A DNA stretch of 44,850 nucleotides from Acidobacteriota bacterium (GTDB lineage: Bacteria > Acidobacteriota > Aminicenantia > UBA2199): positions 1-44,850 of the forward strand of contig JAUPLE010000104.1 in the NCBI GenBank assembly GCA_030837085.1, written 5' to 3'. The position numbers were made by a program, and so were the translations under genes. Shown piece by piece: positions 1,045 through 39,564 of this stretch. The notes beneath the pieces are model-generated. The model searched no databases, was not told where the DNA came from, and saw only the letters and a program-made list of their open reading frames with translations. Each line of letters opens with the position of its first letter. Position 1 is the stretch's first letter.

Positions 1045-4000
1045 TTACTCTTGAGATAACGCCCTAACAAATAATTGCCAGGTCTGAATAACTGCCGGAC
1101 TTTTCAGGATCGAAAAGTGAGTGCCGCTTATTTCATACGTTTTTACAGGATTAGCACAGTAATCATTCCAACTATTTAGAAATACTCGTGGAGATTGATT
1201 TGCCTTAAAATAGTGAAGCTCGGTTATAATTTTCCGAGAAGGAATATAGTCTAACCGTGCATTAGTTAAAGTTCTACCAATATTCAGGTAATAAATTAAA
1301 TCCCTGGCGCCCAATCGCTGGTAATTGGGAATTATTTGAGCCAGGTAATCCGGAATCATTGCCTTTATTATATCAACACTATAATGATTTTCTTCCCAAA
1401 AATTGACTATTGAGGACCAAATCTCATTCATATCGGTTCGATTATTCACTTCTTCATGGATTCGATTATCACCCTGCCAATACTCCAGGAACAATTCTTT
1501 TTCGGATTGCGGGGTAAAGGCAAAGGCTTGTTCTTTCCAATCCCCTTGCGGACCCGGGGCGTCGAGCAGACCGAGGAACGAGACTGCTTCTCCCAACCGT
1601 TCCAATTGCAGTACCATTTCAAAAGCAATAGTACCTCCCAAAGACCAACCCACAATACGATAAGGTCCCTTCGGTTGAACTTTTTTTATCTTCTCAATAT
1701 AGTCCTCGGCCAATTTCTCAATGGTGATATTCCGGGGACCGCAGTTTTCACGATTTATAACATCGGTGCGCAAACCCCAAATATTTAAATCCACATCCAC
1801 AGGAAATTGTTGACAGAATTCCAAATACCCTTCCACTTCCCCGCTGCCGTCGTGAACCAGGAAGAGATGATGGACCTCCGATGATCCTTTCCGCAACAAT
1901 ACAACGTAAGGATCAGCTATCCCGTGAGCCTCCTTTTCCATACCCGCTATATATTCAGCCAAATGACGAATGGAAGGTCGAATAAATACTTCCGCCAGGG
2001 GAACCTTTACCTTGAACATCTCATAGACCCGGGCTGTCATTGCCGTGGCTTTCAATGAATGTCCACCTATTTCGAAAAAATTAGCATCGATACCGATCGA
2101 CGGTTGACCTAAAATCTCAGACCACAATTCCGACAATTTCCGTTCAATCTCATTCCTCGGCACCGTAAACTCTTCTTTTATTCCAGCATTCACAACGGGA
2201 TCAGGAAGCGTTTTCCGATCGATTTTACCATTGGGATTCAAAGGGATTTTTTCAATCGACATAAAGTAAGTGGGGATCATATAATCCGGCAACTGCTGCA
2301 ATAAATATTGTCTTAGATCACTAGCGGAAACCTCTTTTTTATCGGCAGAGGCAACAAAATACGCGATGAGATATTTATCTTTATGTTCATCTTCTTTGAC
2401 CAGTACCACTGCATCTTTAATCCCGGGATAATGCAATAACCGGTTCTCTATTTCCCCCAATTCAATACGGAATCCCCTGATCTTGACCTGCTCATCGATC
2501 CGCCCCAGGTATTCGATAATCCCTTTAGTGGTTCCCCCCACCGGGGGGCCATCCGAAAGCCACCGCGCCAGGTCGCCGGTCCGATAAAACCTTTGCCTCC
2601 GGCGGGTCAGAACCTTTTTGAAAAAAGGTTCCGACACCTCCAAAAACTTCTGATTAGTTAATTCCGGGTTATTCAAATACCCCATGGAAACCCCATCACC
2701 CCCAATATACAATTCACCGGCAATATTTACCGGGCATACATTATTATATTTATCAAGGATTAGATGGACCGTATTACCAGCCGATTCCCCAATGGGAATA
2801 CTGCCAAGCGAAACAAATTGCGTTAAACTTTCCCGCTCGATTTCCAATACCGCGGATATAATCGTTGCCTCCGTGGGACCATACATATTAAACACCCGGC
2901 ACCCACTGCTCACCGATGCAAAACTCCGTTCCACCAGGTCATAAGTCAATTTCTCCGCGCCGATAAATAGAGACTTTAAAGTAATGGGAATGGTAGGCGC
3001 TTTTACAATATATTGATACTGCGTAGGCGTTACATGAAGTATGGTCACGCCATGCCGGTTCATAAAATCAACACTGGCAGCCGCGTCCATTAATACTTCT
3101 TCCGAAACCATGCAAAGACTTGCGCCGGACGTAAGAGTAATAAATATCTCCCACACCGACCAATCAAAATAATAAGAGAGGTTCTGGAGGGTGCGATCAT
3201 GAATCCCAATACCCAGGTTGTGATATCCCCAATGCAGCAGCGGCGACAAATTGGCATGGGTAATGAGCACACCTTTGGGATTCCCGGTGGAACCGGAAGT
3301 GTAGATGACATAAGCGAGATTTGAAGAGCTTAGAAGGTAAGAGGGTAAGAAGGTAAGAGGGTAAGAAGAATTATTGGGAGATTCGGAGATGTCTTCAAAA
3401 AAAAGTTTCTCACCTTCCCACCTTCCCACGCTCAACTTCTCACCTTCTTTATTGCTGGCGGTAACCAATATTTTGGCTCCGCTATCTATCAACATAAAAT
3501 CGCTGCGTTCCCCCGGGTTCCTGGGATTGATCGGCATATAAGCACAGCCAGCCTTCCATATACCCAGGATGCCGGCAAGCATTTCCAAAGAACGTTCCAC
3601 CAGCAGCCCCACAATGTCACCCGATTGGACATCCTTCCGGATCAATAAATGGGCCAGGTGCCCCGATTTTTTATTTAATTCGGAATAGGTAATATAGGAC
3701 CCATAAGACCTATAGGACATATATTCAAATAGTACTATCCCGTCGGGTGTCCGGGCTACCTGCTCTTCAAATAATCGGCAGATGTTTTTATCCTCCGGGA
3801 AATAAAGGGTTGTTCCGTTAAACTCATACAAAAGCTGCAGTTTTTTTTCTTCGGTTATAATCTCCACAGCGGCTATTTTTTGATGCGCATTTCCAATAAT
3901 TACGGATACCACCTGTTTGAAATATGCGGCAAAACGCCGCATCGTCTCCTCTTTGAAAAGTTTGGTACAATAAGTGAACGAGCAAACCAGTTTCTCTTCA

Positions 4001-7000
4001 ACTTCAGTACAGGTCAAAATAAGATCGAATTTTGCAATCCCGGTTTCGATTTCATAGGGGATTATTTTTAATTGGGATGTTTCTACGCGGGCATTTTCTT
4101 TGCCCTGGGTTTCCAGGTTTTGTAACGAAAACATAGTATCAAAGATGGGGTTACGACTAACATCACGGTTTAACAATACCTTTTCCACTAAGTCTTCAAA
4201 CTGGTACTCCTGGTTTTCAAAAGCGTCCAGGGTACTTATTTTGAGTTCCGATAAAAAATCAACGAATTCCATATGGCCTTCGGGATAGTTCCTCAGCGCC
4301 AACGTGTTGACAAACATACCAATCGTTTTTTCCAGGTCCGCATGTCGGCGGCCGGCGATAGGTGTGCCGATAACAATATCTTCCTGGCCCGTTAGCCTGG
4401 CCAATAAAATATTGTATACAGCCAGTAAAAGCATGTACAATGTTACACCCCGCGCAGCGACAATACCCTTTAAGGCAGCGGTGGCATCCGAAGGTATCGT
4501 AAAACCGAATGAGCGACCTTCAAAACTCTGTACTACCGGCCTGGGATAATCAGTGAAGATATTCAGCGCCGGTACTTCGCCTTCAAACACGTTAAGCCAA
4601 TAGGCTTCCTGCTTTTTTATTCTTTCTTTTTCGCTATATTGCCACTCGGAAAAATCTTTATATTGAATTCTTACCGGTTCCAGATGGTCACCGTTGTATA
4701 GGGCAAAAAAATCCCTGATCAATATCCCGTTGGAGACTCCGTCGGAAATAATGTGATGCATATCGACGGCCAGCACATGTTCGGTTTCCGCTTCTTTAAC
4801 CAATCCCACCCGTAGTAATGGCGCTCTCGATAAATCGAAAGCGCGGATAAAATGATTCGGTGTATTCACGAATGATGAATGATGAAGTTTTTCTACTTCG
4901 CGTTCCTTCGCGTTCTTCGCGGCCAAATCATAACATTCGATTTTAAATTCCACTTCTTCAAGTACCTTCTGCACCGGGTCCCGGCCTAACATATGAAAAG
5001 AGGTTCTTAAACTATCATGGCGCTGGATCAATTTCCCGAAAGTCACTTTTAATTTTTTGCTGTCAAGCGCCCCGGAGAGGTGGAAAACCTGCGGCATATT
5101 GTAAGCGACACTTTCTAGTTCCATTTGCTGCAAAATATACAACCGTTTTTGGGCCGATGATAAGACATAATAATCCTTTTTTTCCACGGGCTCAATCGAT
5201 AGATACTTCTCCTGCCTCACACCCTGTATAAATGCTGACAATTCTCTGATGGTGGGATTTTTAAATATTTCTATTACCGGCGTTTTTACATTAAAGGTCT
5301 TATGTACCCTTGCAGCCATGATAGTGGCCTTTAACGAATGCCCTCCTATATCAAAAAAGTTTGTGTCTACCCCCAGTTGGTCCTTTTGGATTCCCAATAT
5401 TCCCGACCATATTTCCAGCAATTTTGCTTCAATTTCATTTTGCGGGGCTGTGTGTGCGCCTACTGCGGTTACAATGGGTTCGGGTAGCGCTTTCCGGTCA
5501 ATTTTCCCGTTAGGATTCAAAGGAATTCTTTCAATTTGAATAAAATAAGCTGGAACCATATAATCCGGTAGATGCTGCGCCAAGTACTGTTTAAGTTCAG
5601 TGGTTAGGACCTCATTTCCAGTCACTTTAGCAACAAAATACGCGATGAGATATTTGTCTTTATTTTCATCTTCTTTGACCAGTATTACGGCTTCTTTAAT
5701 CCCGGGATAGTGTAATAGCCGGTTCTCTATTTCTCCCAATTCGATGCGGAATCCCCGAATCTTGACCTGCTCATCGATCCGCCCCAGGTATTCGATAATC
5801 CCTTTAGTGGCTCCCCCCGCCGGGGGGCCATCCGAAAGCCACCGCGCCAGGTCGCCGGTCTTGTAGAAAATATATGTCTTATAGGACTTATAGGACCTAT
5901 AAAATTTGTCTGCGGTTAATTCCGGGTTATTCAAATACCCCATGGAAACCCCATCGCCCCCAATATACAATTCACCGGCAATATTCACCGGGCATAAGTT
6001 ATTATATTTATCAAGGATTAGATGGATGGTGTTGCCCGCCGATTTCCCGATAGGGATACTAGTGAGCGATTTAAACTGGGCTAAACTCTCCCGGTGGATT
6101 TCCAAAACCGCTGATATAATCGTTGCCTCGGTGGGGCCATACATATTAAACACCCGGCACCCATTGCTCACCGATGCAAAACTCCGTTCCACCAGGTCAT
6201 AGGAAAGTTTCTCCGCACCGATAAATAAATACTTCAATGTAACAGGTATATTGACCGCTTTTACAAAGTATTGATATTGAGTAGGCGTGGCATGAAGTAT
6301 TGTTGCGCCATGACGGTTGATAAAATCGACCCCGGCGACCGCGTCCAACAACATACCTTCGGGCGATATGTAAAGGCTTGCACCGGTAGTGAGAGTGATA
6401 AATATCTCCCATACAGACCAATCAAAATAATAGGACAGGTTCTGGAGGGTACGATCATGAATCCCAATCCCCAGGTTGTGATATCCCCAGTGCAGCAGCG
6501 GCGACAAATTGGCGTGAGTAATAAGCACACCTTTAGGGTTCCCGGTGGAACCGGAGGTGAAAATGATATAAGCTAAATTTGAAGGGTTTAAATTCGAAGC
6601 ACGAAATTCGAAGCACGAAACAATACCCAAATTCAAATGTTCAAAATCCAAAACCATCAGATATTCAAAGTTTCTGCGTAGATTACTACTTGTCAATAAA
6701 AACCTGGCGCCGCATTCGGCTAGCATATATTCGTTCCTGGCCACAGGGGCTTTGGGGTTCAGGGGTGCATAGGCGCAACCGGCCTTCCATATACCCAGGA
6801 TACCGGTAATCATTTCAAACGAACGCTCCACCAACAAGCCCACAATATCGCCCGATTGGACACCTTTCCGGATCAATAAATGGGCTAGGTGTCCCGATTT
6901 TTTATTTAATTCGGAGTAGGTAATATAGGCCCCATAGGACCTATAGGACATATATACAAATAGCGCAATCCCATCAGGCGTCCGGGCAACCTGTTCTTCA

Positions 7001-10000
7001 AATAATTGACAAATGTTTTTCTCTTCCGGGAAGCACCGCGTTGGATCGTTAAACTCATACAAAAGCTGCTGCTTTTCTTCAACGGATATTATTTCCACTT
7101 CGGATATTTTCTTATTTATATTCTCTATAACAGTTAATACCACCTGGTTGAAATATTGTGCAAACCGCTGGATAGTCTCTTTTTTGAAAAGTTTTATACA
7201 ATAATTGAAGGAACAAACCAGTTGCTGTTCAACTTCAGTACAGCCTAAAATAAGATCGAACTTGGCAACTTCGGATTCGATTTCATAAGGTTTTACTTTC
7301 AATTGTGAAGTACCTACTTGAGGTGTTTCACTATCCCGGTTTCGGCTTTCCAAATTCTGAAAAGTAAACATAGTATCAAAAATTGGGTTACGACTTGCAT
7401 CACGGTTAACCGATACCATTTCCACTAAGTCTTCAAATTGATACTCCTGGTTTTCGAATGCTTCCAGGGTCCTTTCTCCAACTTCAGTTAAGAATTCCCC
7501 GAATTTCTTATTGCCTCCGGGATAGTTTCTTAGCGCCAACGTGTTGACAAACATACCAATGGTTTTCTCTAAATCCGCATGTCTGCGACCGGCGATTGGC
7601 GTTCCGATGATAATATCTTCCTGGTTGGTCAATTTGGCCAATAAAACATTATATAGGGCGAGTAAAGTCATGTACAATGTCGCGCCCTTCGAAGCAGCGA
7701 TACGTTTTAAGGTTCCGGTCACATCCATGGGTAATGCAAAACCGAACGAACGGCCGACAAAACTCTGCACTGACGGCCTGGGATAATCAGTGAAAATATT
7801 CAGTACCGGCACCTCACCTGTAAACACTTTAAGCCAATATGCTCCCTGCCTTGCTATTTCCTCTTTTTTCTTTTCGCTGTTTTGCCATTCGGAAAAATCT
7901 TTATATTGGATTCTTACCGGTTTTGGTTCATCGCCGTTGTAAAGGATTAAAAAATCCCTGATCAATATCCCGTTGGAGACGCCATCGGAAATAATGTGAT
8001 GCATATCGACGACCAGCACATGTTCGGTTTCCGCTTCTTTAACCAATCCCACCCTCAATAACGGCGTTTTAGTCAGATCGAAAGGGCGAATAAAATTCTT
8101 TATAAAATCAGACAACCTTGTAGACAATGTAACATCGCCCCTAATATCCCCTAACCCCGGATTCCTGACTTCCAATGTTTCGATTTCAAATTCGGCCTCA
8201 TCATTTATTCGCTGCACCGGCTCGCTTTCTATCATGGGAAAAAATGTTCTCAAACTTTCATGCCGTTTAATTAGCTTTTTAAAAGCTGTTGCCAATTTTG
8301 CCTCATCTAGTTTCCCGAAAAGATGAAAAGCCTGCGGCATGTTATAGACGGTACTTTCCAACTCCATTTGCTGCAAAATATACAGCCGTGTCTGGGCTGG
8401 TGATAAAACATAATACTCTTTTTTCTCCACTGGTTCCAGGGATGTGTATTTATCGCCTTTCACCACGTGTATACGGACTGCCAATTCCCTGATGGTAGGA
8501 TTTTTAAATATTTCCATCAATGGAATCTTTACACCCAGTACCTTATGTATATTAGAAACAACTACGGTGGCCTTTAACGAATGCCCGCCTACCTCGAAAA
8601 AGTTAGTGTCTACCCCCAATAAGTGCTCTTGGATTCCTAAAATTCCTGACCATATCTTTACTAATTTTGCCTCAATTTCATTTTTCGGCGCTGTGTGAAC
8701 ACTTCCGGTAGTTACCAGGGGTTCGGGCAGCGCTTTCCGGTCGATCTTACCGTTAGGATTTAAAGGAATTCTCTCAATTTGAATAAAATAAGAGGGGACC
8801 ATATAATCCGGTAGATGCTGCGCTAAGTATTGTTTTAGTTCAGCGGTTGGGATATCATCGCCAGCCGAATTGGCAACATAATATGCAATGAGATATTTTC
8901 CCTTGTTTTCATCCTCCTTGACCAGCACTACGGCTTCTTTAACCTGGGAATATTTGATCAATCGATTTTCGATCTCCCCACATTCGATACGGAATCCCCT
9001 GATCTTGACCTGCTCATCGATCCGCCCCAGGTATTCGATAATCCCTTTAGTGGTTCCCCCCGCCGGGGGGCCATCGGAAAGCCACCGGGCCAGGTCGCCG
9101 GTTTTGTAGAAACGGTCTTTTGTCATTTGACATTGGTCATTGGAGAAATTGTTATTACTACTAATGACCAATGACGATTGACTAATGGCATCTCGTTTAA
9201 ATCTCTCTACTGTCAATTCCGGGTTATTTAAATATCCCCTGGATACGCCGGCCCCTCCGACCAACAATTCGCCAGAGACTCCAACCGGGACCAGGAAACC
9301 GTACTTATCTACCACGTAAGCGGTGGAATTGAATATGGGTTTACCGATCGGGATTCTCTGGAGATATTCCTCATCGATCAAAAAAGTAGTTGAAAAGGTG
9401 GTATTCTCGGTTGGGCCGTAGCCATTGATAATATTCAAGTGGGGAAACCTCTTCTTTACACGATTAATATGAACCGGGGACAAGACATCACCCCCAACCA
9501 GCAAATTCTTTATTCCCACAAATATCTCAACATCCATCCCGGATAATTGGTTAAAAAGAGGTGAGGTAAGCCACATGGTAGCAATATCCAATTTTCGTAT
9601 ATTCTCCTTCAATCTTTCAGGATTCAATATCTCATCTTTAGCGGCAATACAGAGTGTCATTCCATTTAATAATGATCCCCAGATTTCAAAAGTGGAAGCA
9701 TCAAATTCCAATGCCCCGGTCTGCAAAAGTCGGTCATTCTCCCTGAATTCCACATAATTTGTATTTTTCACCAACCTTACCACATTACGATGCTCCACCA
9801 TAACAGCTTTTGGCCTGCCGGTGGAACCGGAGGTGTAGATGAGGTAAGCGAGATTTGAAGGGATTTGAAGGTAAGAGGGTAAGAACGTAAGAGAGTAAGA
9901 AGAAATTTTTGGGGATTTGTGGATTGCTTCCAAAAGAACTTTCTTACCTTCCCACCTTCTCACGCTCAACTTCTCACCTTCTTTATCGTTGGCGGAAACT

Positions 10001-28323: not shown

Positions 28324-28349
28324 GGTCTCCTCTTTTTTCTCCTTCTGTT

Positions 28350-31300
28350 TCACGAGATCCTTAATTTTTGGGCTTGCTTAAAACGATTATTATTAAACGT
28401 CTGCCGCTGTTTATTCCCTCTATCCTGACTCCTTTTAAAAACACTCTCTGGTTGCAGTTCAGGCTTTTGATTATTACCAATATGCCCTGCGAGGGAATAA
28501 ATTGTGGGGTAACGAAATAGGTCTACAATAGTTAACTCCCGATCATAAATCTCACTCAAACGACTGTGCACCTGGGTAAGTAACAAGGAATGCCCTCCTA
28601 AATCAAAAAAATTATCGTTAATCCCAACCTTCTCCAGGTGCAAATACTCCATCCATACCGATGCGATGACTTGCTCGATCTCCGTCTGCGGCGCCTTGTA
28701 TTTTACCTCCAGATCCTGCCGAACATTGTATAATATGGGGAGAGCAGCGATATCCACTTTCCCATTGGTAGTTAAAGGCATCGCATCAATAAATACGATA
28801 AAGGCTGGGATCATGTATTCCGGTACCCGGCGACCTATCCACTCCCGCAATTCGTTGCTGCCGACTTTTTGCCCACTCCCGACAACAACATAAGCCACCA
28901 AGCGCCTGTCCCCTGGAACTATTTCACGGACCACTACAGCAACATCGGCTATAGCCGGATGCAGCCCAAGGTAAGTTTCAATCTCTGATAATTCTATCCG
29001 ATGCCCATGAACCTGTACCTGTGTATCGATCCGTCCTAAAAACTTAATGCTTCCGTCCGACTGCCAACTGCCTAAATCACCGGTTTTAAAAAGAATATAG
29101 GTCTTATAGGACTTATAGGACCTATTTTTATTTTTAATAAACTTTTCCGCCGTTAATTCCGGGTTGTTTAAATATCCCCGGGATATTCCTTCACCGCCTA
29201 TGTACATCTCACCCGGCACGCCTATGGGAACTACATTATAATACCTATCCAAAATATAAACCTTTGTATTGATGATAGGCTTCCCCACGGGAATTATCGG
29301 ATATTTTGAAAAATTCAAACCCATTTCATTTACAATCGTATATGTCGAACAAACTGTAGCTTCGGTTAAACCATACCCATTGACAATGGTAATCGCTTCG
29401 ATCAAATGATCGATATCGCCGGCGGAAAGCGCTTCTCCACCACTCAACAACAGCCTCAGTTTCCCAGGTCGCCACTCAGCGGAATTCAGTCGGGCAATCA
29501 TAGACGGAACCGTGCTGAGGATGGTTATATCTTGGGTGGAAATTAAAAGTTTTAACTTCTTTATATCCAAAAAAGAAACCCTATCCGCTAAAAATATAGC
29601 GCCGCCAGAAGTTAAAATAGGCAATATCTCTCCCACAAAACTGGCCGAGGCGATAGATGTCAATGGCAGTATCCTATCTCCAGGCCCCGGGCTATACGAA
29701 CGGATAAATGAATATACCAGGTTTACAATATTCCTATTATCGATCAAAATCCCCTTGGGCTCCCCGCTAGAACCGGATGTGTAAATCACGCAGGCAGCAT
29801 TCTCCGCACAACAGCCGTTTAGACAATTATTATCACTTTTTCCAGAAATGAAATCCTTTTCATTATCCAGGCAAACGATTCTTTTCCCGTACCACTCAAA
29901 CCGGCTTAACTCAGTAGTAGCGGTAATCAGTACCGTTGAGCAGGCATCCTTCAATATGGACATCAATCGCCCATCGGGATAGGTGGGGTCCATAGGAATA
30001 TACGCCCCTCCGGTCTTGAGTATTCCCATAACTCCTACGATCAAATCCAACGAATTTTCCATACAAATCCCAACCAGCGTCTCAGTTCCAACATTCATTT
30101 CGTGTAATAAATGTGCCAACTGGTTGGCCTGGCAATTGAGTTCTGTATACGTTAATTGTCTGTTTTCAAATATAACGGCAGTTTCATTGGGATTCTTCTC
30201 TACACAGATTTCAAATAATCGGTATATACAAATATCTGCGGGGTAATCGCAATCGGTGTCATTCCAATGAACCAATAAATGCTGCTTCTCCTCTTCCGAA
30301 AGCATGGGAAGTTGGGAAATCGCCTGGTCAACGCTGCTGAGAACCGCGTCCAGCAACGCCTGGAAATGAGCAGTTATCCGCCGGATGGTATCGACTTCAA
30401 ATAAATCCGTGCTGTACTCGAATGTTCCTTTCATACCACCCGCTTCTTCCCACATGGTTAATGACAGGTCCATCTGGGAAAAACCGGTGTCGATCTGGAT
30501 AGGAATAATGGTAAGGTCAGAAATGCTTATCGCCGGCATTGGGGCGTTCTGCAGTTGAAACATCACCTGGAATAATGGCGTTACGCCTAGATTTCGCTGT
30601 GGGTTTAACTCCTCTACCAATCGTTCAAACGGGATATCCTGGTATTTGTACGCTTCAGAAAAAGCGGAGCGAACTCCCAGGAGAAGTATCTCAAACGTGG
30701 GATTCCGGGAAAGATCCGTGCGTATGACCAATGTATTGACAAACAGACCGATTAGGCCTTCCAATTCGATGCGGTGGCGACCGGCGATAGGAATACCGAT
30801 AAGTATGTCTTCCTGACCTGAATAGCGAAATAGGAGTGTATTATAAACGGCCATTAACAGCATAAAAAGAGTAACATTCTCCCTCCGGGCCAGGGTGTTC
30901 AGTTCCTGAAGTTTGTCTCCTTGGATATAAAAGGGCTGGACCGATCCTTTCCCTGAGAGCATATTGGGTCGCGGGTGATCAGTGGGTAATTCCAGCATTG
31001 TCGGGGATCCGGCCAATGCGGTTCTCCAATAGGCTAATTGGGTCTCATATAACTGTCCCTGCATCCATTCATGGAGCCATTGTACATAATCGGTATATTG
31101 GATGGGGAGTTCGCCCAACGGTGAAGGTTTTCCTTGATTAAAGGCTTCATAGAGAGAGATTAATTCTTTCAACATGATGCCCTTGGACCAACCGTCCATG
31201 ACAATGTGATGGATACTAACCACCAGGGCATAATCGTCCGTTGCTATTCTCAGTAGCCCGGCCCGAATAAGGGGGGCGTCAGCTAAATCAAAAGGCTGCC

Positions 31301-31697
31301 GGGAGAAATGGTTAACAAAATCCCTGATTTGTTTTTCCACGTCCGTACCTGTTTGCAGGTCTAAGACAGTAATGATTAGATGTTCTATCTTTTTAAATAC
31401 CTGGGTAGGTTGCCCTTCTTTGGCTGGGAAGTTCATTTGTATGACCCGGTGGCGGCGAACAATCTCATTAAGGGTCAGTTCCAGGGTCGAGATGTTCAAA
31501 GGTCCTTTGATACGCAAAGCAGTAGGATCATTATAGGCCGCACTGCCCGGATCAAACTGTTGTAAGAACCAAATACGGCGCTGGGCAAAGGATAGTTTAA
31601 ACGGCCCCGGATCATCTCTTTTTTTCAGTACCGGGCCTCCAAGGGTTTGAATACCTTTCTTTTTCAGTAATTCTTCAAATAATTTCTGTTTGTTCAT
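28350..31697 (-). CDS. NRPS, 1115 aa: C-A(no Asp235)-T
   Basis: HHIVMDG, YTSGSSGEPKG, A4 region TSIASASFVGE, NGYGLTE, NGK and GGHSL. Confidence 0.93.
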   Translation of the reverse strand: MNKQKLFEELLKKKGIQTLGGPVLKKRDDPGPFKLSFAQRRIWFLQQFDPGSAAYNDPTALRIKGPLNISTLELTLNEIVRRHRVIQMNFPAKEGQPTQVFKKIEHLIITVLDLQTGTDVEKQIRDFVNHFSRQPFDLADAPLIRAGLLRIATDDYALVVSIHHIVMDGWSKGIMLKELISLYEAFNQGKPSPLGELPIQYTDYVQWLHEWMQGQLYETQLAYWRTALAGSPTMLELPTDHPRPNMLSGKGSVQPFYIQGDKLQELNTLARRENVTLFMLLMAVYNTLLFRYSGQEDILIGIPIAGRHRIELEGLIGLFVNTLVIRTDLSRNPTFEILLLGVRSAFSEAYKYQDIPFERLVEELNPQRNLGVTPLFQVMFQLQNAPMPAISISDLTIIPIQIDTGFSQMDLSLTMWEEAGGMKGTFEYSTDLFEVDTIRRITAHFQALLDAVLSSVDQAISQLPMLSEEEKQHLLVHWNDTDCDYPADICIYRLFEICVEKNPNETAVIFENRQLTYTELNCQANQLAHLLHEMNVGTETLVGICMENSLDLIVGVMGILKTGGAYIPMDPTYPDGRLMSILKDACSTVLITATTELSRFEWYGKRIVCLDNEKDFISGKSDNNCLNGCCAENAACVIYTSGSSGEPKGILIDNRNIVNLVYSFIRSYSPGPGDRILPLTSIASASFVGEILPILTSGGAIFLADRVSFLDIKKLKLLISTQDITILSTVPSMIARLNSAEWRPGKLRLLLSGGEALSAGDIDHLIEAITIVNGYGLTEATVCSTYTIVNEMGLNFSKYPIIPVGKPIINTKVYILDRYYNVVPIGVPGEMYIGGEGISRGYLNNPELTAEKFIKNKNRSYKSYKTYILFKTGDLGSWQSDGSIKFLGRIDTQVQVHGHRIELSEIETYLGLHPAIADVAVVVREIVPGDRRLVAYVVVGSGQKVGSNELREWIGRRVPEYMIPAFIVFIDAMPLTTNGKVDIAALPILYNVRQDLEVKYKAPQTEIEQVIASVWMEYLHLEKVGINDNFFDLGGHSLLLTQVHSRLSEIYDRELTIVDLFRYPTIYSLAGHIGNNQKPELQPESVFKRSQDRGNKQRQTFNNNRFKQAQKLRIS
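29097..29126. repeat. 9-bp tandem array (ATAGGACCT family), in frame
   Basis: ATAGGTCTT ATAGGACTT ATAGGACCT ATT; encodes NRSYKSYKTY. Confidence 0.85.
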
Positions 31698-31734
31698 AAG
31701 AAATTGATAAATTTTTCACTTCCAGGGACGGCAT

Positions 31735-34700
31735 TTAATTGGAAAAAACTTCCCTGTATGTCCTGGCGATTTCTTCAACGGTTTCCGCATCCCCCCAGGT
31801 ATCAACCACATGACCGACTATTTCCCGGATAGTGGGTTTATCGAACAGGATGTTTAACGGCAAATCGATACGAAAGACCTCCCGCATCCGAGCAATCAAT
31901 TTCGTGGCCAGCAGCGAATGTCCTCCCAGGGCAAAAAAGTCATCCTGCACGCCCACCGGTGCGATACCCAACAATTGCTCCCAGATTTCGGCAGCGATCT
32001 TTTCCGCATCTGTTTGCGGTTCCTCGTAAATATTTTGCAGTTGGGGTCTTTTATGGACCGCCGATTTAGCGCCCGCGGATTCATCCTGAACCCCGGTACT
32101 CGAAACGGGGGCAGAAACCGGCAAAACCCACTGTCGGAGACGCTTATCCAGGCTCCTGCATGAAATCACTACCTGGGGTGTCCCGGGTGAATTCATTGAT
32201 AATACCCGTTGCAACGCTTCTTTCCCTTCTTCGCTCGTTATAGACGCTGTATTGCGTATACAACCCGGTGACCGATCTCTTTGCCATTCATCCCAGTTGA
32301 TACTGATCCAGTTATTGCCATAAACTTGACTTTGTTCCCGGGCCAGAGCATCCATAAAACTATTAGCCGCACTATATGCATACAAGCCAATACCACCTAA
32401 AACCGCTGATAGTGAAGAAGTTAAAATACAAAAATCCAGGGTTTTATCTTTAAACACATCTGCTATCACATTAGCCCCATATATTTTAGGGCCAAAATGA
32501 ATTTCACAAGTTTCCTTATCCAGTTGTGAGATGGGCTTAAAGTGCTCGTCCGACATGACCCCGGCGGTATGAATTATCCCGTGGATGTCACCGAACCTTG
32601 CTTCGACCAGACGGCGCGCGTGGACCATTTGTTCTTTTACAGAAACATCGGCCTCGATAACCTGTACCTCTGCTCCAGTTTCTTCCAGGCTTTTTATACG
32701 GGGATCCCCCGTTAAATATCTTCGGTCGGTCAGTATGAGTTTGGCGTGTACGGTCTGTGCTAAATAGTGGGCAAACGTAAACCCAATCCTGCCCAGACCG
32801 CCGGTTATAAGATAAACTCCGTTCTGTCTTAATTTTATCGGAATCCCGGGATAATTTCCCAGTTTTATCGGTTCATGGGATTGCACCCAACGAGTATTCC
32901 CACGATAAGCAATCACACGGTCCGGTGGTGAAACGTTTAATTCTAAAAATAAGTTATGCAATATTTCAGTGGAAGTATCGATCTCCAGGTTTCGGCAAAT
33001 GATATTGGGATATTCCTGGGAAATTACTTTGCATGGTCCGGGGATGGTCTCTTTCAAAGGACTGATGGTATCTCCGCTCTCGATCTTAAACATATGGTCA
33101 GATATGATCCAGAATTCTATGAGATTGAACAGGGACTGTTTTCCCAGGGCTTTTACCAGGTAAAGGAGGCTGTAAATCCCCCGCTCCAGTAAAATGTCGG
33201 ACAGTTCTGACTTGGTCCAAAAATGTACGATTTTGTCGATGGTTTTATCGTGGTTTACAATATCTTCCAGTAGGGCGTTATAATCATTGGGGCAACCAGG
33301 GTTAATTTCATAAGCGTCTTCGCCGGTTCGGGCAAATTGCGCTCCGATCGTTACAGTAATGATATGTTGGCCTTTTTCTTTCAGCAGGGGGATTAACTGC
33401 TCCTGGGTTGTCAAGAAAAACAACCAGCATTTGGGCTGCGCTAGATTTTTTTCTATTTCTTGCCGATCCAGGAAGGAGGGAGCGGTTTGTTTCCAGGTGG
33501 GGATATAAAACCAATCTTCTATTTTTTTCTTTCCTTCCTCTATTATTTCCTTATCTACCGTTGCATCATTTCCTGGTTGAAGCCAATAGCTGTTCTTTGC
33601 AAAGGGATAGGTGGGCAGGGGAACACGGTGTCTTTCTTGCCCAGCGTGGAATTCTTTCCAGTCGATTTCCACACCGTGGAGCCATAATTGGCCTATGCTA
33701 TTGAGTAAATAATAGGAATCCGATATTTGTTTTTTTGGATGACGGACCAGATCAATGATTACCGTACCATCGTTTTTGTCTGTTCCCAAATGCTGTTTAA
33801 CAAAAGTACTGGCTGTCCGGCCCGGCCCAACTTCGATAAAAATGGGTACTGTAATTTCCAGGAGTTTCCTTATGCCGTCCGCAAACCGCACGGTTTGGCG
33901 TAAATGATTTGCCCAGTATGTGGGGGAGGTTGTTTCTTTTTCGGTTATCCAGTCGCCGGTTAGATTTGATATGTAGGGAATCTGGGGAGGATTTAGCCGG
34001 ACTCGTTTGGCGGTTTCTTCGAACTCCTTCAATATGGGGTTCATCATCGGGGAATGAAATGCATGGGAGGTGTGAAGTAGAGTACTGTCATATCCTTTCA
34101 GTTTCAACAGCTTTTCGAAGGAATAAACTGCATCATGGGGTCCGGAAACAGTACAGAGGTTTGAAGAATTCACTGCCGCCAGGGAGAGTTCTGCGGCGTC
34201 GCTGTTCTTGCTATTTTCCTCTAATATTGTCAGCAGGTCTTTTTCCAGGATGGGGACGCTTAACATGGCGCCGGGGGGCATTTTTTGCATTAGTTTTCCC
34301 CTGGCTACCACTAGTTTTAAAGTGTCTTCCAGGGTGAGTACTCCGGACAAACAAGCGGCAGTATATTCGCCGATGCTGTGCCCGATCATGGCATGAGGTT
34401 TGACTCCCCAATTCATTAACAATTTGGCCAGTGCATATTCGATGGTAAAAATTACCGGCTGCGTAATTTCTGTTTGGTCTATAATATCGGTCTTATTGGA
34501 CCTATAGGACTTATTATCCCTATTACCGTCAAGTGAAGGATAAAGAATCGTTTTAATATCATAATCAATAATTGGTTGTAAAATTTCAAAACAGTGGTCC
34601 ATTTCGCGGCGGAAGACCGGTACGTTCTGGTACAGGTACAGGCCCATATCGACATACTGCGAACCCTGGCCAGGGAACATGAATATAACCGGCCTGCTTC

Positions 34701-37700
34701 CGGGCTCGGAAAAAAAGATTTCTCTTTTCTCGCTGTTAGTCAGGGCTTCGATGGCTTCATCCTTATTGGAGCATACAAACATTTGCCGGTAATGAAAACG
34801 TGCCCGGCCCACATGTAAGGTATAGACCGCATCGGCCATATTTATAGAGAGCGTATTTTTTCTTAAATAATCGGCCAGGTTCCTGGCTTGTTGTTCCAAT
34901 GCAGTTTGAGTTTTTGCAGACAATAAAATCAATTCATATTGTTTAACTCCTGATCCCTCCACACTGCCCCCTAAATATTCTTCTAATATCACATGGGCGT
35001 TGGTGCCGCCGATTCCCAGGGAACTGGCGGCAGCACGACGCGGCGTCTCCGAGTCCGGCCAATCACGTAGTTTAAGGTTCACATAAAAGGGGCTGTCGGC
35101 GAAACCGATCAAGGGATTAGGTTCCGTTACATTAATACTGGGGGGAATTTGTTTATATTTAAGACATAATACCGCTTTTATTAAGCCGATAACACCGGCT
35201 GCCACATCCAGGTGACCGATATTGGCTTTTACGGAACCCAAGGCGCAGTATTGCTTGCCGCTGCCAGCACTGCCGTACGCTCGGATCAAGGCGGAAATTT
35301 CCACGGGGTCGCCCAAGACCGTACCAGTGCCGTGGGTTTCAACGTACCCAATAGTATGGGGCTGGATGCGGGATTCTTGTAGGGCTTTTAAAACCACATC
35401 CGCCTGGCCGCTTTCACCAGGACTGTGGAAGCCTACCTTTAACGAACCGTCATTGTTGATGGCTGAACCTTTAATTACGGCATAGATATGATCGTTATCT
35501 TTAACGGCTTCGGACAACCGTTTGAGCACAACAATACCGACCCCGTTGCCGAATACGGTGCCTTTAGCAGCGGCATCAAAAGGCCGACAATGGCCGTCCG
35601 GGGATAAATGGCCGCCTTCGGTATAAAAGTACCCGGTCTTTTCCGGTATTTTAACGGCGATTCCACCGCTTAAGGCTATATCACAATCATGGGCCAATAG
35701 CGCTTGCCTGGCCAGGTGAACCGCTGTCAATGAAGTAGAGCAGGCTGATTGTATGGCCACACTGGGTCCCTTTAAATTGAGCTTGTAAGAGACGCGGGTG
35801 GTCAAAAAATCTTTATCGTTCCCGATCATGGTCTGGAACTCTCCCTGGGTTTTTATCACACCGGGATTTTTCAATACGTTATTTAATAAATAGGTGTTCC
35901 AGCCAACCCCGGCATAGACCCCGATGGACCCGGGATAGGTTTCCCCCATATAACCGGCATCTTCCAACGCCTTCCAGGCATATTCGAGAAATATTCGCTG
36001 CTGGGGGTCCATTAACTCGGCTTCCCTGGGATGATACCCGAAAAAATCAGCGTCGAATAAATCAATGTCCCCCATTACTCCACCAGCAGCAATAAGTTTG
36101 GAACTTCCCTTTATGACCTGGTAAGCTTCGGAACTTTCCAGTTCATCTTCCTGGAAAAATGTGATGGATTCAACGCCGTTTATTATATTCCGCCAAAATT
36201 CGTCAATACCAGTCGCCCCGGGCACTCGCATGGCTATCCCAATAACTGCGATATCCCGGCTGCCCAGCCTTGTCTCCTGCGTTTCCTTTGCTTCCTCTTT
36301 TTTTACTTCGGCATCAGCCTTCCCGGTAACGTTCCCTTCTATAAATGCAGCCTGGCGCGCAATCGTAGGATACCTGAACAACTCCACTACCGATATCGCC
36401 CGCTTCAGTTTGAAGTTTTTTTCCAGTTTGCTCTTTAACTTGATGAGCAGTAAAGAATGTCCACCCAAATCGAAAAAATTATCATCCACACCAATCTTTT
36501 CTTTTTCCAGGAGCTCCTTCCAAATTTCCTGAATTTTACTTTCATATTCACTTCGTGGTGGAAGATAAGCCTCACCGATGCCAATATTGCCATCTACCTC
36601 CATGCTGACCAATGCTTTCCGGTCGATTTTCCCGTTGGGCGTCAAAGGCAAACTCGCTAGCGGCATGAAATGTGCAGGAACCATATAATCGGGAAGCGTT
36701 TTTAATAAGTACTGCCGAATCTCCGAAACAGGAACCTCCCCACTGGAAACGAAAAAGGCATAGAGATTCTTTTCTCCTTCCCTGTCCTCCCTCGCCACTA
36801 CCGCCGCCTCTTTAATACCCGAATAACGCAAGACATGGTTCTCGATCTCTCTCAACTCCACCCGGTTGCCACGAATCTTTACCTGGTGATCAATACGACC
36901 TAAAAATTCTACCCTACCGTCCGGCATCCATTTACCTAAATCACCGGTTTTGTATAGAGTGCCTCCGGCGGCCAGAAACCCTTTTGAAAAAGGGTTTCTG
37001 GACTTCCTAAAACTTTTTATGAACTTCTCTGCGGTCATCTCCGCCCGCTTCCAATACCCATAACATACACCAGCCCCTATAGCACATATCTCCCCTACTA
37101 CCCCCACCGGCTGCAATTGATAATGATGATTCAATATGAATACATTCGTGTTCAAAGACGGCCTACCAATAGGAACCTTCCGCGTATCCGTATCCACTGG
37201 GATCGTGTAATGCATTATATCATCGCTGCATTCGGTCTGACCATAACAATCCACTAAATCGATACCTATATATTTTTCATAAAATTTGTTTACGACAAAC
37301 GGTTTGGTCTCCTCCGATGTCAACGCAATCTTCCTTAACTTCTCCAGCTTTATCTTCTCTTTCCCCTCATCCAATAAGAATAGATACGTTTTTAATACCG
37401 GCGGGATAAGTTCAATAACCGTTACCCCATCTGCCTCCACCACCTGGAATTGCAAATATGGGTCCCACTCCACCTCATCCGTATACACCACCAACCGCGC
37501 CCCCATAAACAACGGCGCCAAAACCTGCCACACCGCTGCAATAACATTGATACTGAAATTATTGGCCACCGTATCCGCTTCCGTAATCCCTAACACCCCT
37601 ATTTTTGTATAGGTATGATTCACAATACCCGAATGATGCAATAACGCCCCTTTCGGTTTTCCCGTCGAACCCGAAGTGTAAATTATATAAGCCAAATCCA

Positions 37701-39564
37701 TCGGCTTAACCGCAATATTTAAATTATCGGTCCCATAAGCATTCAGGTTTTCCAGGTCGTAAATAATTTCCCTTACCCCCGGCGCAGCAATCGATTCCAC
37801 GAAACTGTGCTTCAATAAAAATCCAGCCTCACTATCTTGGAGAATAAACCCATTCCGCTCCACCGGGTAAGAAATATCCAGCGGAATACACGCTGCCCCA
37901 GCTTTTAATATCCCCAACAAACCTACGATCATTTCAATGGAACGGGGCATCAACAGGACCACCCGGCATCCCCCAGATACACCGTAGGCCTTTAATAGAT
38001 GGGCCAGACGGTTGGCGCTTTCATTCAATTCTTGATAAGATAACCAACGGTCCCCAAATTGCACCGCCCGGTTCCCCGGAATCCGCGCCGCCTGCTTTTC
38101 AATTTCGCCATGGATCGTTTTATTTAATTCAAACTCAATGCCGGGATCATTAAATTCACAAAGAATTTGCTGTACCTCTACTTCCGATAATACCTCGACT
38201 TCTGCAATCTTTGCTTTTGGGTCTGAGGTTATACCGGCCAGGATATTCAAGTAATGACCGGCCAACCGCTGGATGGTCCCGGTCTCGAACACATCTGCAT
38301 TATAATGGAAATCCACTTTCACAACACCGGTATCCGTACCCGGCAGCATAATCTGAAGCGTCAAATCGAATTCGGTCATTTCAAAAGTTTCATAAGACTT
38401 TATGGCCAAACCAACGCTGTCGCTTGCACTGGCGCCGGTCCGATCAGAAACGTCGGAAACTGGAAACGGATAATTATCTATCACAAAAATCGAATCGAAT
38501 AAATGACTTTCCTTACCCATGCCGGTCCATTGCCCGATATCCGTTAACGGGGTGTGCTCATGACTGCTTCTTTCTTTTAAATGGGCGCCGACTTCCGCCA
38601 GTACCTCAAAAACCGAATGTTCCCCGGTTGTTTTTAGTCTGAAAGGAATCGTATTGATAAACAATCCCACCATGGAATCAATGCCTTTAATTCCCGGGAT
38701 ACGACCCGACACCGTCGTACCGAAAATAATATCATCGCTATTATTGTATTTTTGCAGCAAAATCCCCCAGGCCGCATATAAAATCGCTGCCAGCGTCGTA
38801 TTATTCAACTGGGCAAACTCATCCACGCGCTTTTTAAAAGCTGGGGCCAATTCCTCCCTAACCGTTTGAACGCGAAGAATATCTTCGGTCTTATTTTTAT
38901 CATAAGGTAACAACGTCCTCGTATCGAAACCGGCCAGGTAATTTTTCCAGAAGTCTTCATGTTTAGCTTTATTTTGCACCCGGTCGTTTTGATACCATTT
39001 AATAAATTCTTTATATTTTGTTTTTTCGATATTTTCAGGCGTTTCCCCAACGACCAGACGGTTATACGCTCCCAGGAACTCTTTTAATACGATCCCATTG
39101 CTCCAACCGTCATATATAATATGATGAAAAGTTATAAGCATTTCACTCTCATCATCTCCCGCCAATGACAGGGTAATTCGCAGTGGGTTGCATGTCAAAT
39201 CAATGGCTTCGTTTTTGTCATCCATTACGATTTTATCCAACACAGCCTGGATCGCGTCTTTCTTCTCCCCGGTTAAATCAAATACGCGGATAGGTATTCC
39301 CTTATCCTTTAAGACAATTTGCACCGGTTCTTCCAATTGCTCCCAACGAATTACCGAACGCAGCATTTCACTGACTTGAGCGACTGCAGCCCATGCTTCT
39401 TCAAAACGCCGGATATCTATTTTACCGATAAGTTTGAATCTGAATTGCTCAAAATATTGCCGGGAACCGGGATTCGCTAAGTAATGAAACAACATGCCTT
39501 CCTGCATGGCAGTCAGGCCCATTATATCCTCGACGTTTCGTTTATCGATTTTGGAATGATCCAT
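31735..39564 (-). CDS. Hybrid NRPS-PKS, 2609 aa: C-A(no Asp235)-T-KS-AT-KR-T
   Basis: HHIIYDG, YTSGSTGKPKG, GGHSL; KS QSACSTS/HGTGT/NIGH; AT GHSIG/HAFH; KR TGGLGRIG and YSAAN; terminal GGHSL. Confidence 0.95.
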   Translation of the reverse strand: MDHSKIDKRNVEDIMGLTAMQEGMLFHYLANPGSRQYFEQFRFKLIGKIDIRRFEEAWAAVAQVSEMLRSVIRWEQLEEPVQIVLKDKGIPIRVFDLTGEKKDAIQAVLDKIVMDDKNEAIDLTCNPLRITLSLAGDDESEMLITFHHIIYDGWSNGIVLKEFLGAYNRLVVGETPENIEKTKYKEFIKWYQNDRVQNKAKHEDFWKNYLAGFDTRTLLPYDKNKTEDILRVQTVREELAPAFKKRVDEFAQLNNTTLAAILYAAWGILLQKYNNSDDIIFGTTVSGRIPGIKGIDSMVGLFINTIPFRLKTTGEHSVFEVLAEVGAHLKERSSHEHTPLTDIGQWTGMGKESHLFDSIFVIDNYPFPVSDVSDRTGASASDSVGLAIKSYETFEMTEFDLTLQIMLPGTDTGVVKVDFHYNADVFETGTIQRLAGHYLNILAGITSDPKAKIAEVEVLSEVEVQQILCEFNDPGIEFELNKTIHGEIEKQAARIPGNRAVQFGDRWLSYQELNESANRLAHLLKAYGVSGGCRVVLLMPRSIEMIVGLLGILKAGAACIPLDISYPVERNGFILQDSEAGFLLKHSFVESIAAPGVREIIYDLENLNAYGTDNLNIAVKPMDLAYIIYTSGSTGKPKGALLHHSGIVNHTYTKIGVLGITEADTVANNFSINVIAAVWQVLAPLFMGARLVVYTDEVEWDPYLQFQVVEADGVTVIELIPPVLKTYLFLLDEGKEKIKLEKLRKIALTSEETKPFVVNKFYEKYIGIDLVDCYGQTECSDDIMHYTIPVDTDTRKVPIGRPSLNTNVFILNHHYQLQPVGVVGEICAIGAGVCYGYWKRAEMTAEKFIKSFRKSRNPFSKGFLAAGGTLYKTGDLGKWMPDGRVEFLGRIDHQVKIRGNRVELREIENHVLRYSGIKEAAVVAREDREGEKNLYAFFVSSGEVPVSEIRQYLLKTLPDYMVPAHFMPLASLPLTPNGKIDRKALVSMEVDGNIGIGEAYLPPRSEYESKIQEIWKELLEKEKIGVDDNFFDLGGHSLLLIKLKSKLEKNFKLKRAISVVELFRYPTIARQAAFIEGNVTGKADAEVKKEEAKETQETRLGSRDIAVIGIAMRVPGATGIDEFWRNIINGVESITFFQEDELESSEAYQVIKGSSKLIAAGGVMGDIDLFDADFFGYHPREAELMDPQQRIFLEYAWKALEDAGYMGETYPGSIGVYAGVGWNTYLLNNVLKNPGVIKTQGEFQTMIGNDKDFLTTRVSYKLNLKGPSVAIQSACSTSLTAVHLARQALLAHDCDIALSGGIAVKIPEKTGYFYTEGGHLSPDGHCRPFDAAAKGTVFGNGVGIVVLKRLSEAVKDNDHIYAVIKGSAINNDGSLKVGFHSPGESGQADVVLKALQESRIQPHTIGYVETHGTGTVLGDPVEISALIRAYGSAGSGKQYCALGSVKANIGHLDVAAGVIGLIKAVLCLKYKQIPPSINVTEPNPLIGFADSPFYVNLKLRDWPDSETPRRAAASSLGIGGTNAHVILEEYLGGSVEGSGVKQYELILLSAKTQTALEQQARNLADYLRKNTLSINMADAVYTLHVGRARFHYRQMFVCSNKDEAIEALTNSEKREIFFSEPGSRPVIFMFPGQGSQYVDMGLYLYQNVPVFRREMDHCFEILQPIIDYDIKTILYPSLDGNRDNKSYRSNKTDIIDQTEITQPVIFTIEYALAKLLMNWGVKPHAMIGHSIGEYTAACLSGVLTLEDTLKLVVARGKLMQKMPPGAMLSVPILEKDLLTILEENSKNSDAAELSLAAVNSSNLCTVSGPHDAVYSFEKLLKLKGYDSTLLHTSHAFHSPMMNPILKEFEETAKRVRLNPPQIPYISNLTGDWITEKETTSPTYWANHLRQTVRFADGIRKLLEITVPIFIEVGPGRTASTFVKQHLGTDKNDGTVIIDLVRHPKKQISDSYYLLNSIGQLWLHGVEIDWKEFHAGQERHRVPLPTYPFAKNSYWLQPGNDATVDKEIIEEGKKKIEDWFYIPTWKQTAPSFLDRQEIEKNLAQPKCWLFFLTTQEQLIPLLKEKGQHIITVTIGAQFARTGEDAYEINPGCPNDYNALLEDIVNHDKTIDKIVHFWTKSELSDILLERGIYSLLYLVKALGKQSLFNLIEFWIISDHMFKIESGDTISPLKETIPGPCKVISQEYPNIICRNLEIDTSTEILHNLFLELNVSPPDRVIAYRGNTRWVQSHEPIKLGNYPGIPIKLRQNGVYLITGGLGRIGFTFAHYLAQTVHAKLILTDRRYLTGDPRIKSLEETGAEVQVIEADVSVKEQMVHARRLVEARFGDIHGIIHTAGVMSDEHFKPISQLDKETCEIHFGPKIYGANVIADVFKDKTLDFCILTSSLSAVLGGIGLYAYSAANSFMDALAREQSQVYGNNWISINWDEWQRDRSPGCIRNTASITSEEGKEALQRVLSMNSPGTPQVVISCRSLDKRLRQWVLPVSAPVSSTGVQDESAGAKSAVHKRPQLQNIYEEPQTDAEKIAAEIWEQLLGIAPVGVQDDFFALGGHSLLATKLIARMREVFRIDLPLNILFDKPTIREIVGHVVDTWGDAETVEEIARTYREVFSN
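34486..34524. repeat. 9-bp tandem array (ATAGGACCT family), in frame in the PKS AT domain
   Basis: ATCGGTCTT ATTGGACCT ATAGGACTT ATTATCCCT ATT; encodes NRDNKSYRSNKTD. Confidence 0.8.
36961..37015. repeat. 55-bp palindromic element, copy 2, in frame in the hybrid NRPS-PKS A domain
   Basis: GCCTCCGGCGG + arm CCAGAAACCCTTTT + GA + perfect arm AAAAGGGTTTCTGG + ACTTCCTAAAACTT. Confidence 0.9.

Follow-up and report, generated by a model that had tools for sequence, protein, structure and literature searches.

Adenylation (A) domains of nonribosomal peptide synthetases (NRPSs) may be interrupted by auxiliary domains located between the core motifs A2 and A3 or A8 and A9, and the A2-A3 region tolerates large insertions. 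In cyanobacteria, tandem heptamer arrays (short tandemly repeated repetitive sequences, STRR) and tiny hairpin-forming small dispersed repeats (SDRs) lying beside or inside these arrays were reportedly described by Elhai et al. in 2008 as mainly intergenic. The heptamer repeats of Nostoc and Xanthomonas are under-represented within coding sequence (PMC4692102). Rickettsia palindromic elements (RPEs) are described as palindromic, non-autonomous elements of ~150 bp which lie between genes or in frame within genes, where they encode a peptide compatible with the protein fold (PMC10969869). [quoted passage not shown] A literature search covering few subscription journals found neither an account of repeats colonising the loops of bacterial NRPSs in frame nor one of Aminicenantes repeats. 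We describe here a 44,850-bp stretch, the entire contig C261 of the metagenome-assembled genome (MAG) G000 (referred to as the window), which carries a cluster of NRPS and polyketide synthase (PKS) genes. Inside its NRPS genes lie 19 short repeat-derived inserts of seven to eight DNA families, all of them in frame; about 20 inserts of at least six families had been claimed in the original prediction, which was made from the sequence of the window. Most of these families are dispersed throughout the genome, and within NRPS genes they reside in a few loops of the A and condensation (C) domains.

All large genes of the window are on the minus strand and form an NRPS/PKS cluster of seven large open reading frames (ORFs), one of which, with a DUF5916 match, is taken up further below, as judged from Pfam matches:

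1045-14319, minus strand: ORF A, four C-A-T modules (T, thiolation domain) and a thioesterase domain
16810-21606, minus strand: ORF C, part of the NRPS/PKS cluster
21666-25070, minus strand: ORF D, part of the NRPS/PKS cluster
25090-28353, minus strand: ORF E, KS-AT-T (KS, ketosynthase; AT, acyltransferase)
28350-31697, minus strand: ORF F, part of the NRPS/PKS cluster
31735-39564, minus strand: ORF G, C-A-T-KS-AT-KR-T (KR, ketoreductase)

Seven A domains (found by the A7 motif) and six C domains were aligned, and module 4 was compared with the solved LgrA. Five loops proved to be filled recurrently: the one before A1, the A2-A3 loop, the A6-A7 loop, the turn after A7 (A7-A8) and the C-domain loop before RPFDL. 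Relative to module 4, LgrA has gaps of 6 aa before A1, 8 aa in A2-A3, 9 aa in A6-A7 and 9 aa in A7-A8. The inserts are 5-25 residues long, and the host A domains retain their core motifs and their fold (Pfam AMP-binding matches; E = 1.4e-181 for the LgrA alignment; AlphaFold2 model described below). Six fixed sites had been proposed; the alignment upheld five of them, whereas the sixth, a loop in an AT domain, was rejected since its 11-mer (26505-26526) is a one-off local duplication without a family elsewhere in the genome. The inserts and repeat arrays within the NRPS genes are as follows:

2521-2550, minus strand: 27-nt insert with a G+C palindrome (2533-2550), turn after A7, module 4
2592-2651, minus strand: 58-nt hairpin, GTCAGAACC stem subfamily, A6-A7 loop of ORF A module 4, antisense frame 1
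3332-3368, minus strand: octamer array AGAAGGTA/AGAGGGTA, 4.6 copies, A2-A3 loop, module 4
3406-3449, minus strand: AAGGTGAG-family octamer array, A2-A3 loop, module 4, imperfect inverted partner of 3332-3368
3692-3723, minus strand: TATAGG-type nonamer array, before A1, module 4
4869-4887, minus strand: GAATGAT heptamer array, C-domain loop before RPFDL, module 4; 137 copies outside ORFs
4896-4923, minus strand: decamer array CTTCGCGTTC, same C-domain loop of module 4
5878-5901, minus strand: TATAGG-type nonamer array, A6-A7 loop, module 3
6590-6620, minus strand: array of 14-bp period with alternating heptamers AAATTCG and AAGCACG, A2-A3 loop, module 3; count 15, z = -2.75
6923-6954, minus strand: TATAGG-type nonamer array, before A1, module 3
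9105-9210, minus strand: A6-A7 loop, module 2; its GGTCATT heptamers (9114-9143) form a hairpin together with an inverted partner, z = -2.97
9867-9901, minus strand: GGTAAGAG-type octamer array, A2-A3 loop, module 2, cassette shared with module 4
9940-9986, minus strand: AAGGTGAG-family octamer array, A2-A3 loop, module 2
12382-12414, minus strand: TATAGG-like short repeat, A6-A7 loop, module 1
18866-18900, minus strand: GAATGAT heptamer array, A6-A7 loop, ORF C; 14-mer count 261
29096-29125, minus strand: TATAGG-type nonamer array, A6-A7 loop, ORF F; fold z = -3.57
36960-37017, minus strand: 58-nt hairpin, CCAGAAACCC subfamily, A6-A7 loop, ORF G, antisense frame 0; fold z = -4.05

The G+C-palindrome insert of module 4 recurs in module 3 (5812-5829) and module 2 (9055-9072). 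Periods of 7, 8, 10 and 14 bp were confirmed in the window arrays, in agreement with the claim that the periods are not multiples of three and that the pattern resides at the DNA level. Arrays at 20696, 21101, 28180, 33231 and 35633 were discarded as singletons without a family elsewhere in the genome, and an Rfam search of the window gave zero family matches. The notion that all inserts are hairpins made of inverted arrays was likewise abandoned: the octamer loops gave z = -0.39 and -1.38, the GAATGAT array fails too, and of 55 pairs of adjacent arrays within NRPS ORFs only 4 are inverted when up to one mismatch is allowed. It does hold for the GGTCATT, 14-mer and ORF F TATAGG inserts (z from -2.75 to -3.57).

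G000 is a fragmented MAG of 6.94 Mb in 1045 contigs (45% G+C, 87% complete, 3.3% contamination). Stop-to-stop frames of at least 300 aa (ORF300; 2756 in G000) served as a proxy for genes, which were not called. DNA outside ORF300, other ORF300 and NRPS-like ORF300 make up 0.36, 0.50 and 0.145 of the genome, respectively. The NRPS/PKS-like portion amounts to 1.05 Mb in 218 long frames, i.e. ~15% of the genome, and hidden Markov models (HMMs) built from the window's own domains hit A domains 324 times and C domains 292 times. In the genome-wide count proposed earlier, the insert motifs of the window turned out to be the commonest 12-mers of G000, and the families are strongly enriched outside NRPS genes. 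The top repeats include the GAATGAT, TAATTGT and AAGGTGAG-type arrays and the 58-nt hairpin. They lie mostly outside long ORFs, and their copies in coding DNA are almost confined to NRPS/PKS-like ORFs. Tandem Repeats Finder returned 4471 non-overlapping arrays, of which 754 repeat every 7 bp and 630 every 8 bp; the period-7 arrays are distributed as 530 outside ORF300, 72 in other ORF300 and 152 in NRPS-like ORF300 (~213, 21 and 150 per Mb). Individual families show the same classes as follows:

GAATGAT arrays: 111 outside ORF300, 2 in other ORF300, 53 in NRPS ORF300
TAATTGT arrays: 86 outside ORF300, 0 in other, 25 in NRPS
AAATCCG arrays: 17 outside ORF300, 0 in other, 12 in NRPS
ACCACTC arrays: 15 outside ORF300, 0 in other, 10 in NRPS
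AAGGTGAG arrays: 11 outside ORF300, 0 in other, 17 in NRPS

Pooled at no more than one mismatch, the family of the octamer array 3332-3368 is found 43 times outside ORF300, once in other ORF300 and 29 times in NRPS ORF300; for the CTTCGCGTTC decamer (count 51) the pooled figures are 20, 0 and 3. The copies outside are not hidden NRPS fragments: no A or C domain lies within 900 nt of 105 of the 111 GAATGAT arrays, or of 129 of the 131 hairpins, in this class. Inside NRPS ORFs the frame is kept: 53 GAATGAT arrays are in frame versus 2 which lie beside an NRPS domain without an open frame. Arrays between the genes of the window, noticed earlier at 39581, 43356 and 44647, are also members of genome-wide families:

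39577-39620, no strand assigned: TAATTGT heptamer array, intergenic; the family also occurs in A2-A3 loops of other G000 NRPS genes
43354-43384, no strand assigned: TTTCCGTG-type array just beyond the DUF72 ORF; pooled 44 outside ORF300, 3 in other, 1 in NRPS
44620-44679, no strand assigned: AAGGCAC-type octamer repeats, intergenic; 47/2/0 and 38/1/0 (outside/other/NRPS), never in NRPS ORFs

Octamers of the AAGGCACC type form inverted array pairs ~16-30 nt apart outside genes (C117:1541-1614, C199:4299-4374 and window 44620-44679).

The hairpin element has sharp ends 58 nt apart and is present in ~163 distinct copies in G000, 131 outside long frames, 23 in NRPS frames and 9 in other long frames. 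Of the 23 NRPS copies, 22 map to A or C domains, namely to the A6-A7 loop (12), the C loop (9) and the A2-A3 loop (1), and two hairpins are listed elsewhere in NRPS frames, one of them in a KS-AT linker. In NRPS ORFs the element is read in three antisense and two sense frames, and the sixth frame is used in a non-NRPS ORF; each frame encodes an unrelated peptide, and one of the sense frames is open only in a loop variant lacking TGA. The stem subfamilies differ by compensating changes, and several of them occur at one site. Both window hairpins fold far better than shuffled sequence (z = -3.1 for the copy 2592-2651, which contains 12-mers with up to 44 copies outside ORFs). The hairpins in non-NRPS long frames lie mostly between domains of multidomain proteins (by Pfam, NACHT-WD40, CHAT-TPR, ResB-CcsA and an MFS-like region), and two of the nine are probably upstream of the true start. 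Hosts of these copies on contigs C8, C276, C437, C465, C511, C657 and C885 (loci L031-L037) comprise MFS/spermine synthase, CHAT-TPR, an RHS-repeat protein with a TcdB_toxin_midC match, NACHT-WD40, FHA-FtsW, TIR-NACHT and ResB-CcsA proteins. Outside genes, the copies often directly abut tandem arrays, and 11 tail-to-tail inverted doublets with gaps of 7-16 nt, similar to REPINs (hairpin-forming doublets of repetitive extragenic palindromic, REP, sequences), were seen among 495 nhmmer hits that were not de-duplicated. The listed flanks revealed no target-site duplication and no common flank, and a plasmid collection gave zero hairpin matches. The suggested link to REP-associated tyrosine transposases (RAYTs) or IS200 was searched for and not found. 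G000 contains a single weak Y1 transposase fragment (24.9 bits); G001 has many elements and 0 Y1 matches, whereas G008 has 4 matches and 0 elements, and none of seven transposase loci contained the hairpin. RAYT mobilisation was rejected on these grounds.

When non-triplet-period arrays were placed on the domain HMMs, A domains received 230 of them and C domains 68, the remaining 41 lying elsewhere in NRPS ORFs. The A-domain arrays peak at positions 150-200 (152 arrays), 420-440 (31) and 70-80 (9), and the C-domain arrays at 90-110 (29). The 16 families most common inside NRPS genes have 173 arrays there, 172 of which are within four loop windows that make up ~15% of a module; this exceeds chance, the count being one of paralogous copies and not of independent events. 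Unrelated families occupy the same loop; a recognised array is present in A2-A3 of 69 and in A6-A7 of 66 of the 167 near-full-length A domains. The inserts were mapped on a predicted structure, as had been proposed. In an AlphaFold2 model of the module-4 A domain based on a 56-sequence alignment (mean predicted local distance difference test score, pLDDT, 86.2; predicted template modelling score, pTM, 0.87), confidence is low at internal residues 61-70 (73), 151-200 (57, 66, 51, 45 and 75), 421-440 (74 and 67) and 451-460 (59), blocks that coincide with the four insert positions; the C-terminal end is low too. Every internal 10-residue block with a mean pLDDT below 76 overlaps an insert, except residues 31-40 (69) near the N terminus. 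An earlier model on a 7-sequence alignment (pLDDT 51.5) was not used. The model suggests that the filled loops are tolerated, disordered surface loops.

Hairpins at the same site resemble each other more than their surroundings do. Their median identities were 0.86 and 0.84, compared with 0.60 and 0.57 for the 150+150-nt flanks, and the hairpin was more alike than the flanks in 45 of 45 and 36 of 36 same-site pairs. The inserts are therefore younger than the paralogues, shared hairpin variants show that some copies spread from one NRPS gene to another, and differing subfamilies and frames at one site speak for several separate arrivals. On a tree of 167 A domains, loop content required 61 changes versus 66.6 with shuffled labels, and the labels barely cluster on trees made from the whole core or from local flanks. 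We read this weak signal as probable fast turnover; recombination within domains also blurs such trees.

These data bear on the idea that the inserts are selected peptide repeats inherited with the domains, the DNA periodicity being a by-product. Such an explanation could apply to two families, which the picture of dispersed elements writing peptide loops does not fit well: the TATAGG nonamer, with its three-codon period (pooled, 1 array outside long ORFs, 0 in other ORFs and 24-25 in NRPS ORFs), and the palindrome of A7-A8, matched 22 times inside ORFs of at least 150 aa and 5 times outside, are nearly NRPS-only. For the remaining families that picture of dispersed elements at hotspots stood, and for most families the peptide explanation is already contradicted: one element is read in five frames, the AAATCCG arrays and the AACCGGC arrays of a sister species are read in both orientations, the same units are plentiful far from NRPS genes, in 81 of 81 pairs the elements were more alike than their flanks, conserved sites hold different units in different species, and the loops have low pLDDT. 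As a general account we consider it very improbable. In the turn after A7, one A domain on C746 carries two tandem copies of a G+C-palindrome-plus-TATA insert, and a second insert type (PAARGAY-like) resembles a genome-wide CCCGCGCCGCGG palindrome.

The modules of ORF A show how loop contents are exchanged. To either side of the A6-A7 loop, modules 3 and 4 share 90-98% identity, whereas the loop itself holds the hairpin in module 4, TATAGG nonamers in module 3 and GGTCATT arrays in module 2. The end of the module-4 hairpin itself supplies the QKF codons, the other modules having DKF or ERF. In the A2-A3 loop (~3520-3300), module 4 shares an identity of 0.76-0.86 with module 2 and of only 0.30-0.51 with module 3, while on either side of this loop it is 0.84-0.94 identical to module 3. 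A ~220-nt A2-A3 cassette was transferred, making module 4 a mosaic with breakpoints in the conserved A2 and A3 motif DNA. With the breakpoints there and not in the repeats, the earlier suggestion that the repeats may supply recombination seeds finds no support.

Among 30 related genomes, the hairpin was matched in seven, namely in all five of the same genus and in two further genera of the family, and in none of the other 23. GAATGAT arrays are abundant in G000, G001 and G004, fewer in G005 and G007, and were not found in G002, G003, G009 and the other 22 relatives searched. In a 393-kb sample of the sister species G002 (64 A-domain and 70 C-domain hits), the same hotspots are filled with other units, including AACCGGC, ACACAGAGG and AACTTCTC, and GAATGAT arrays are missing; AACCGGC occurs only in G002 among G001, G002, G003, G005 and G009. 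Metagenome A-domain relatives of 42-64% identity carry many further 7-8-nt units at the same loops, and the 15 most distant ones (36-40%, L157-L171) have no array of at least 19 nt at any hotspot. Motifs unenriched elsewhere in the genome together with the same peptides in unrelated NRPSs would have been the picture contrary to the original prediction; the genome-wide counts and the array-free distant relatives speak the other way.

Other bacteria are known to use heptanucleotide tracts for phase variation, and gain or loss of a 7-, 8- or 10-nt unit in a coding sequence would shift the frame. The arrays might accordingly be regarded as contingency loci, i.e. slippage-prone frameshift switches turning the megasynthetases off and on. 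The arrays are, however, short (~3-5 units) and imperfect and nearly always in frame (53 versus 2 for GAATGAT), and the same loops hold the hairpin and 9-nt arrays, which are incapable of such switching. In four public sequencing runs, compared as contigs, which drop rare variants, no array length polymorphism was seen, nor any unit-length variant among the best-supported indels. We regard such a switching function as highly improbable.

The 1045 contigs of the MAG, and independent unitigs that break at repeats, might raise the suspicion that repeats were mis-joined into NRPS contigs. Short-read unitigs of one public run end at the inserts at 2494, 3340, 4718/4865, 5788, 6172-6629, 7978/8025 and 9016/9079 (window 2494-9847), which means that the repeats fragment short-read assemblies inside biosynthetic genes. 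The same strain was found at low depth in a second study, and an independent 27-kb contig covers 9825-21650 with a single difference. As frames are open across up to 4424 codons and the same pattern recurs in further genomes as well as in the metagenomes of other studies, an assembly artefact is scarcely credible.

Taken together, we think it probable that the inserts arose by DNA-level insertion and expansion, were filtered for open frames in disordered loops, and were spread by short-patch recombination between modules. The genome would harbour many very short repeat families, comprising tandem arrays of 7-10-nt units and a discrete 58-nt hairpin of MITE/REP type, which spread at the DNA level, the hairpin by insertion and the arrays by slippage-type expansion. 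Selection would purge such events from most genes; in NRPS genes they may survive at a few disordered surface loops, provided that the frame is kept and no stop codon is brought in. These loops are flanked by codons of the core motifs, the most conserved DNA of ~300 paralogous modules. Because the loops are bracketed by conserved motif DNA, short-patch recombination can copy a loop cassette from module to module, and loop content would consequently turn over much faster than the surrounding domains. Judging by their open frames, the inserts would be translated as extra, probably unstructured loop peptide.

Several observations weigh against this explanation. The inference of translation relies on open frames, and the counts on stop-to-stop frames in a fragmented MAG. 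No array length polymorphism was seen in the contigs mentioned above, and no transposase linked to the hairpin was found in a search restricted to the Y1 family. A comparison of a filled with an empty orthologous site was sought and none was found: in a DNA search of the five same-genus genomes with ORF A and 31735-44850, the synthetases reached ~75% at most, whereas the flanking housekeeping genes were 86-90% identical. The best cluster relatives are only 64-75% identical, scanning metagenomes with the A domain of module 4 yielded at best a 64% match, and joined-flank BLAST within G000 found paralogues at ~62-76%, the few higher matches being the filled loci themselves. As no empty site was found, no target-site duplication, exact insertion size or current mobility is shown. 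Almost no named families reside in the variable inter-domain linkers, a scarcity that selection acting as the sole filter would not obviously produce. The stop-free AAGGCACC octamer (47/2/0) never enters NRPS frames, so that a rule by which every open repeat can settle in every tolerant loop oversimplifies matters. Finally, among loci L068-L093 of G002, all 25 in which an AACCGGC array was located are inside A- or C-domain frames, in both orientations; the 26 pattern matches of this unit overlap, which leaves fewer distinct sites, and one locus is without an array. The two NRPS-restricted families of G000 and this NRPS-only heptamer imply that NRPS loops are a habitat themselves and not just a sink for intergenic repeats.

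The scarcity in linkers, the stop-free octamer and the NRPS-only heptamer are also compatible with the idea that sequence directs the elements to NRPS loops, e.g. through microhomology of the hairpin tail to the codons at the end of A6 or through a recombination system using the motifs. The repeats would then be cassettes for exchange, or seeds of recombination, and would promote the shuffling of modules in a lineage whose NRPS load is exceptional. The hairpin end gives QKF/KSF codons in place of the native EKF/DKF, the native loop being replaced and not merely interrupted, a loop cassette did move between modules, and ~15% of the genome with its 324 A-domain hits is NRPS/PKS-like. However, neither an enzyme nor a targeting signal was found, the breakpoints of the sole mosaic are in motif DNA and not in repeats, and 131 of 163 hairpins lie outside long ORFs with no common flank seen. 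The few copies in linkers of unrelated multidomain proteins are what untargeted insertion followed by selection would give. We hold targeted colonisation to be unlikely. Its fuller form, in which sequence-directed homing of hairpin and array cassettes into motif-bracketed loops and their swapping between modules would make the repeats more than passengers and give rise to the recombination substrate for the extraordinary megasynthetase expansion and reshuffling of this lineage, is doubtful and quite speculative. If true, assembly lines would have a natural system for exchanging cassettes.

In the window, a 739-aa ORF matching DUF5916 (14500-16719) is located on the same strand amid the synthetase genes, and a 404-aa ORF without a Pfam family (40860-42074) lies between aminotransferase and DUF72 genes. 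EF-P of the window shares 93% identity with the EF-P of a MAG labelled Candidatus Aminicenantes and 92% with that of one labelled Candidatus Deferrimicrobium; the host is not a cyanobacterium. Same-genus genomes likewise yield hundreds of NRPS/PKS matches. The host is a sediment bacterium, and its uncultured lineage is unusually rich in biosynthesis genes.

Insertion and expansion followed by filtering, the explanation we prefer, makes these genes a natural experiment on peptide segments born from non-coding repeats, with hundreds of in-frame events at a few A- and C-domain loops. The positions before A1, in A2-A3, in A6-A7, in the turn after A7 and in the C loop before RPFDL provide an empirical map of insertion tolerance for NRPS engineering. 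Loop cassettes moving between modules bear on the recombination of assembly lines, and repeats breaking short-read assemblies within biosynthetic genes affect genome mining. The concept of selfish DNA inside genes, known from Rickettsia, now also takes in an uncultured lineage that is free-living and rich in biosynthesis, as well as tandem arrays of non-triplet period.

Like RPEs, the hairpin of G000 is palindromic, dispersed and in frame in genes (23 NRPS copies and up to 9 in other ORF300). Unlike RPEs, which are ~150 bp long with one conserved peptide each, it is 58 nt long and is read in five or six frames. The RPE hosts are unrelated metabolic genes, whereas those in G000 are overwhelmingly NRPS loops, and the phylum differs; the two systems are likened by description, not by sequence. 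The tandem 7-nt arrays dispersed in non-coding DNA (530 of 754 outside ORF300) correspond to STRR, and the hairpin copies that often abut arrays correspond to SDRs; the host in our case is not cyanobacterial, and the residence in NRPS loops is in frame and systematic. Short hairpins and 11 inverted doublets are reminiscent of REP sequences and REPINs, which differ in having a cognate RAYT flanked by repeats. The MITE-NRPS cases appear to concern disruption or neighbourhood, in contrast to the in-frame, retained, multi-family loop residents of G000. Interrupted A domains carry whole functional domains, whereas the inserts found here are repeat-encoded segments of 5-25 residues in low-confidence loops.

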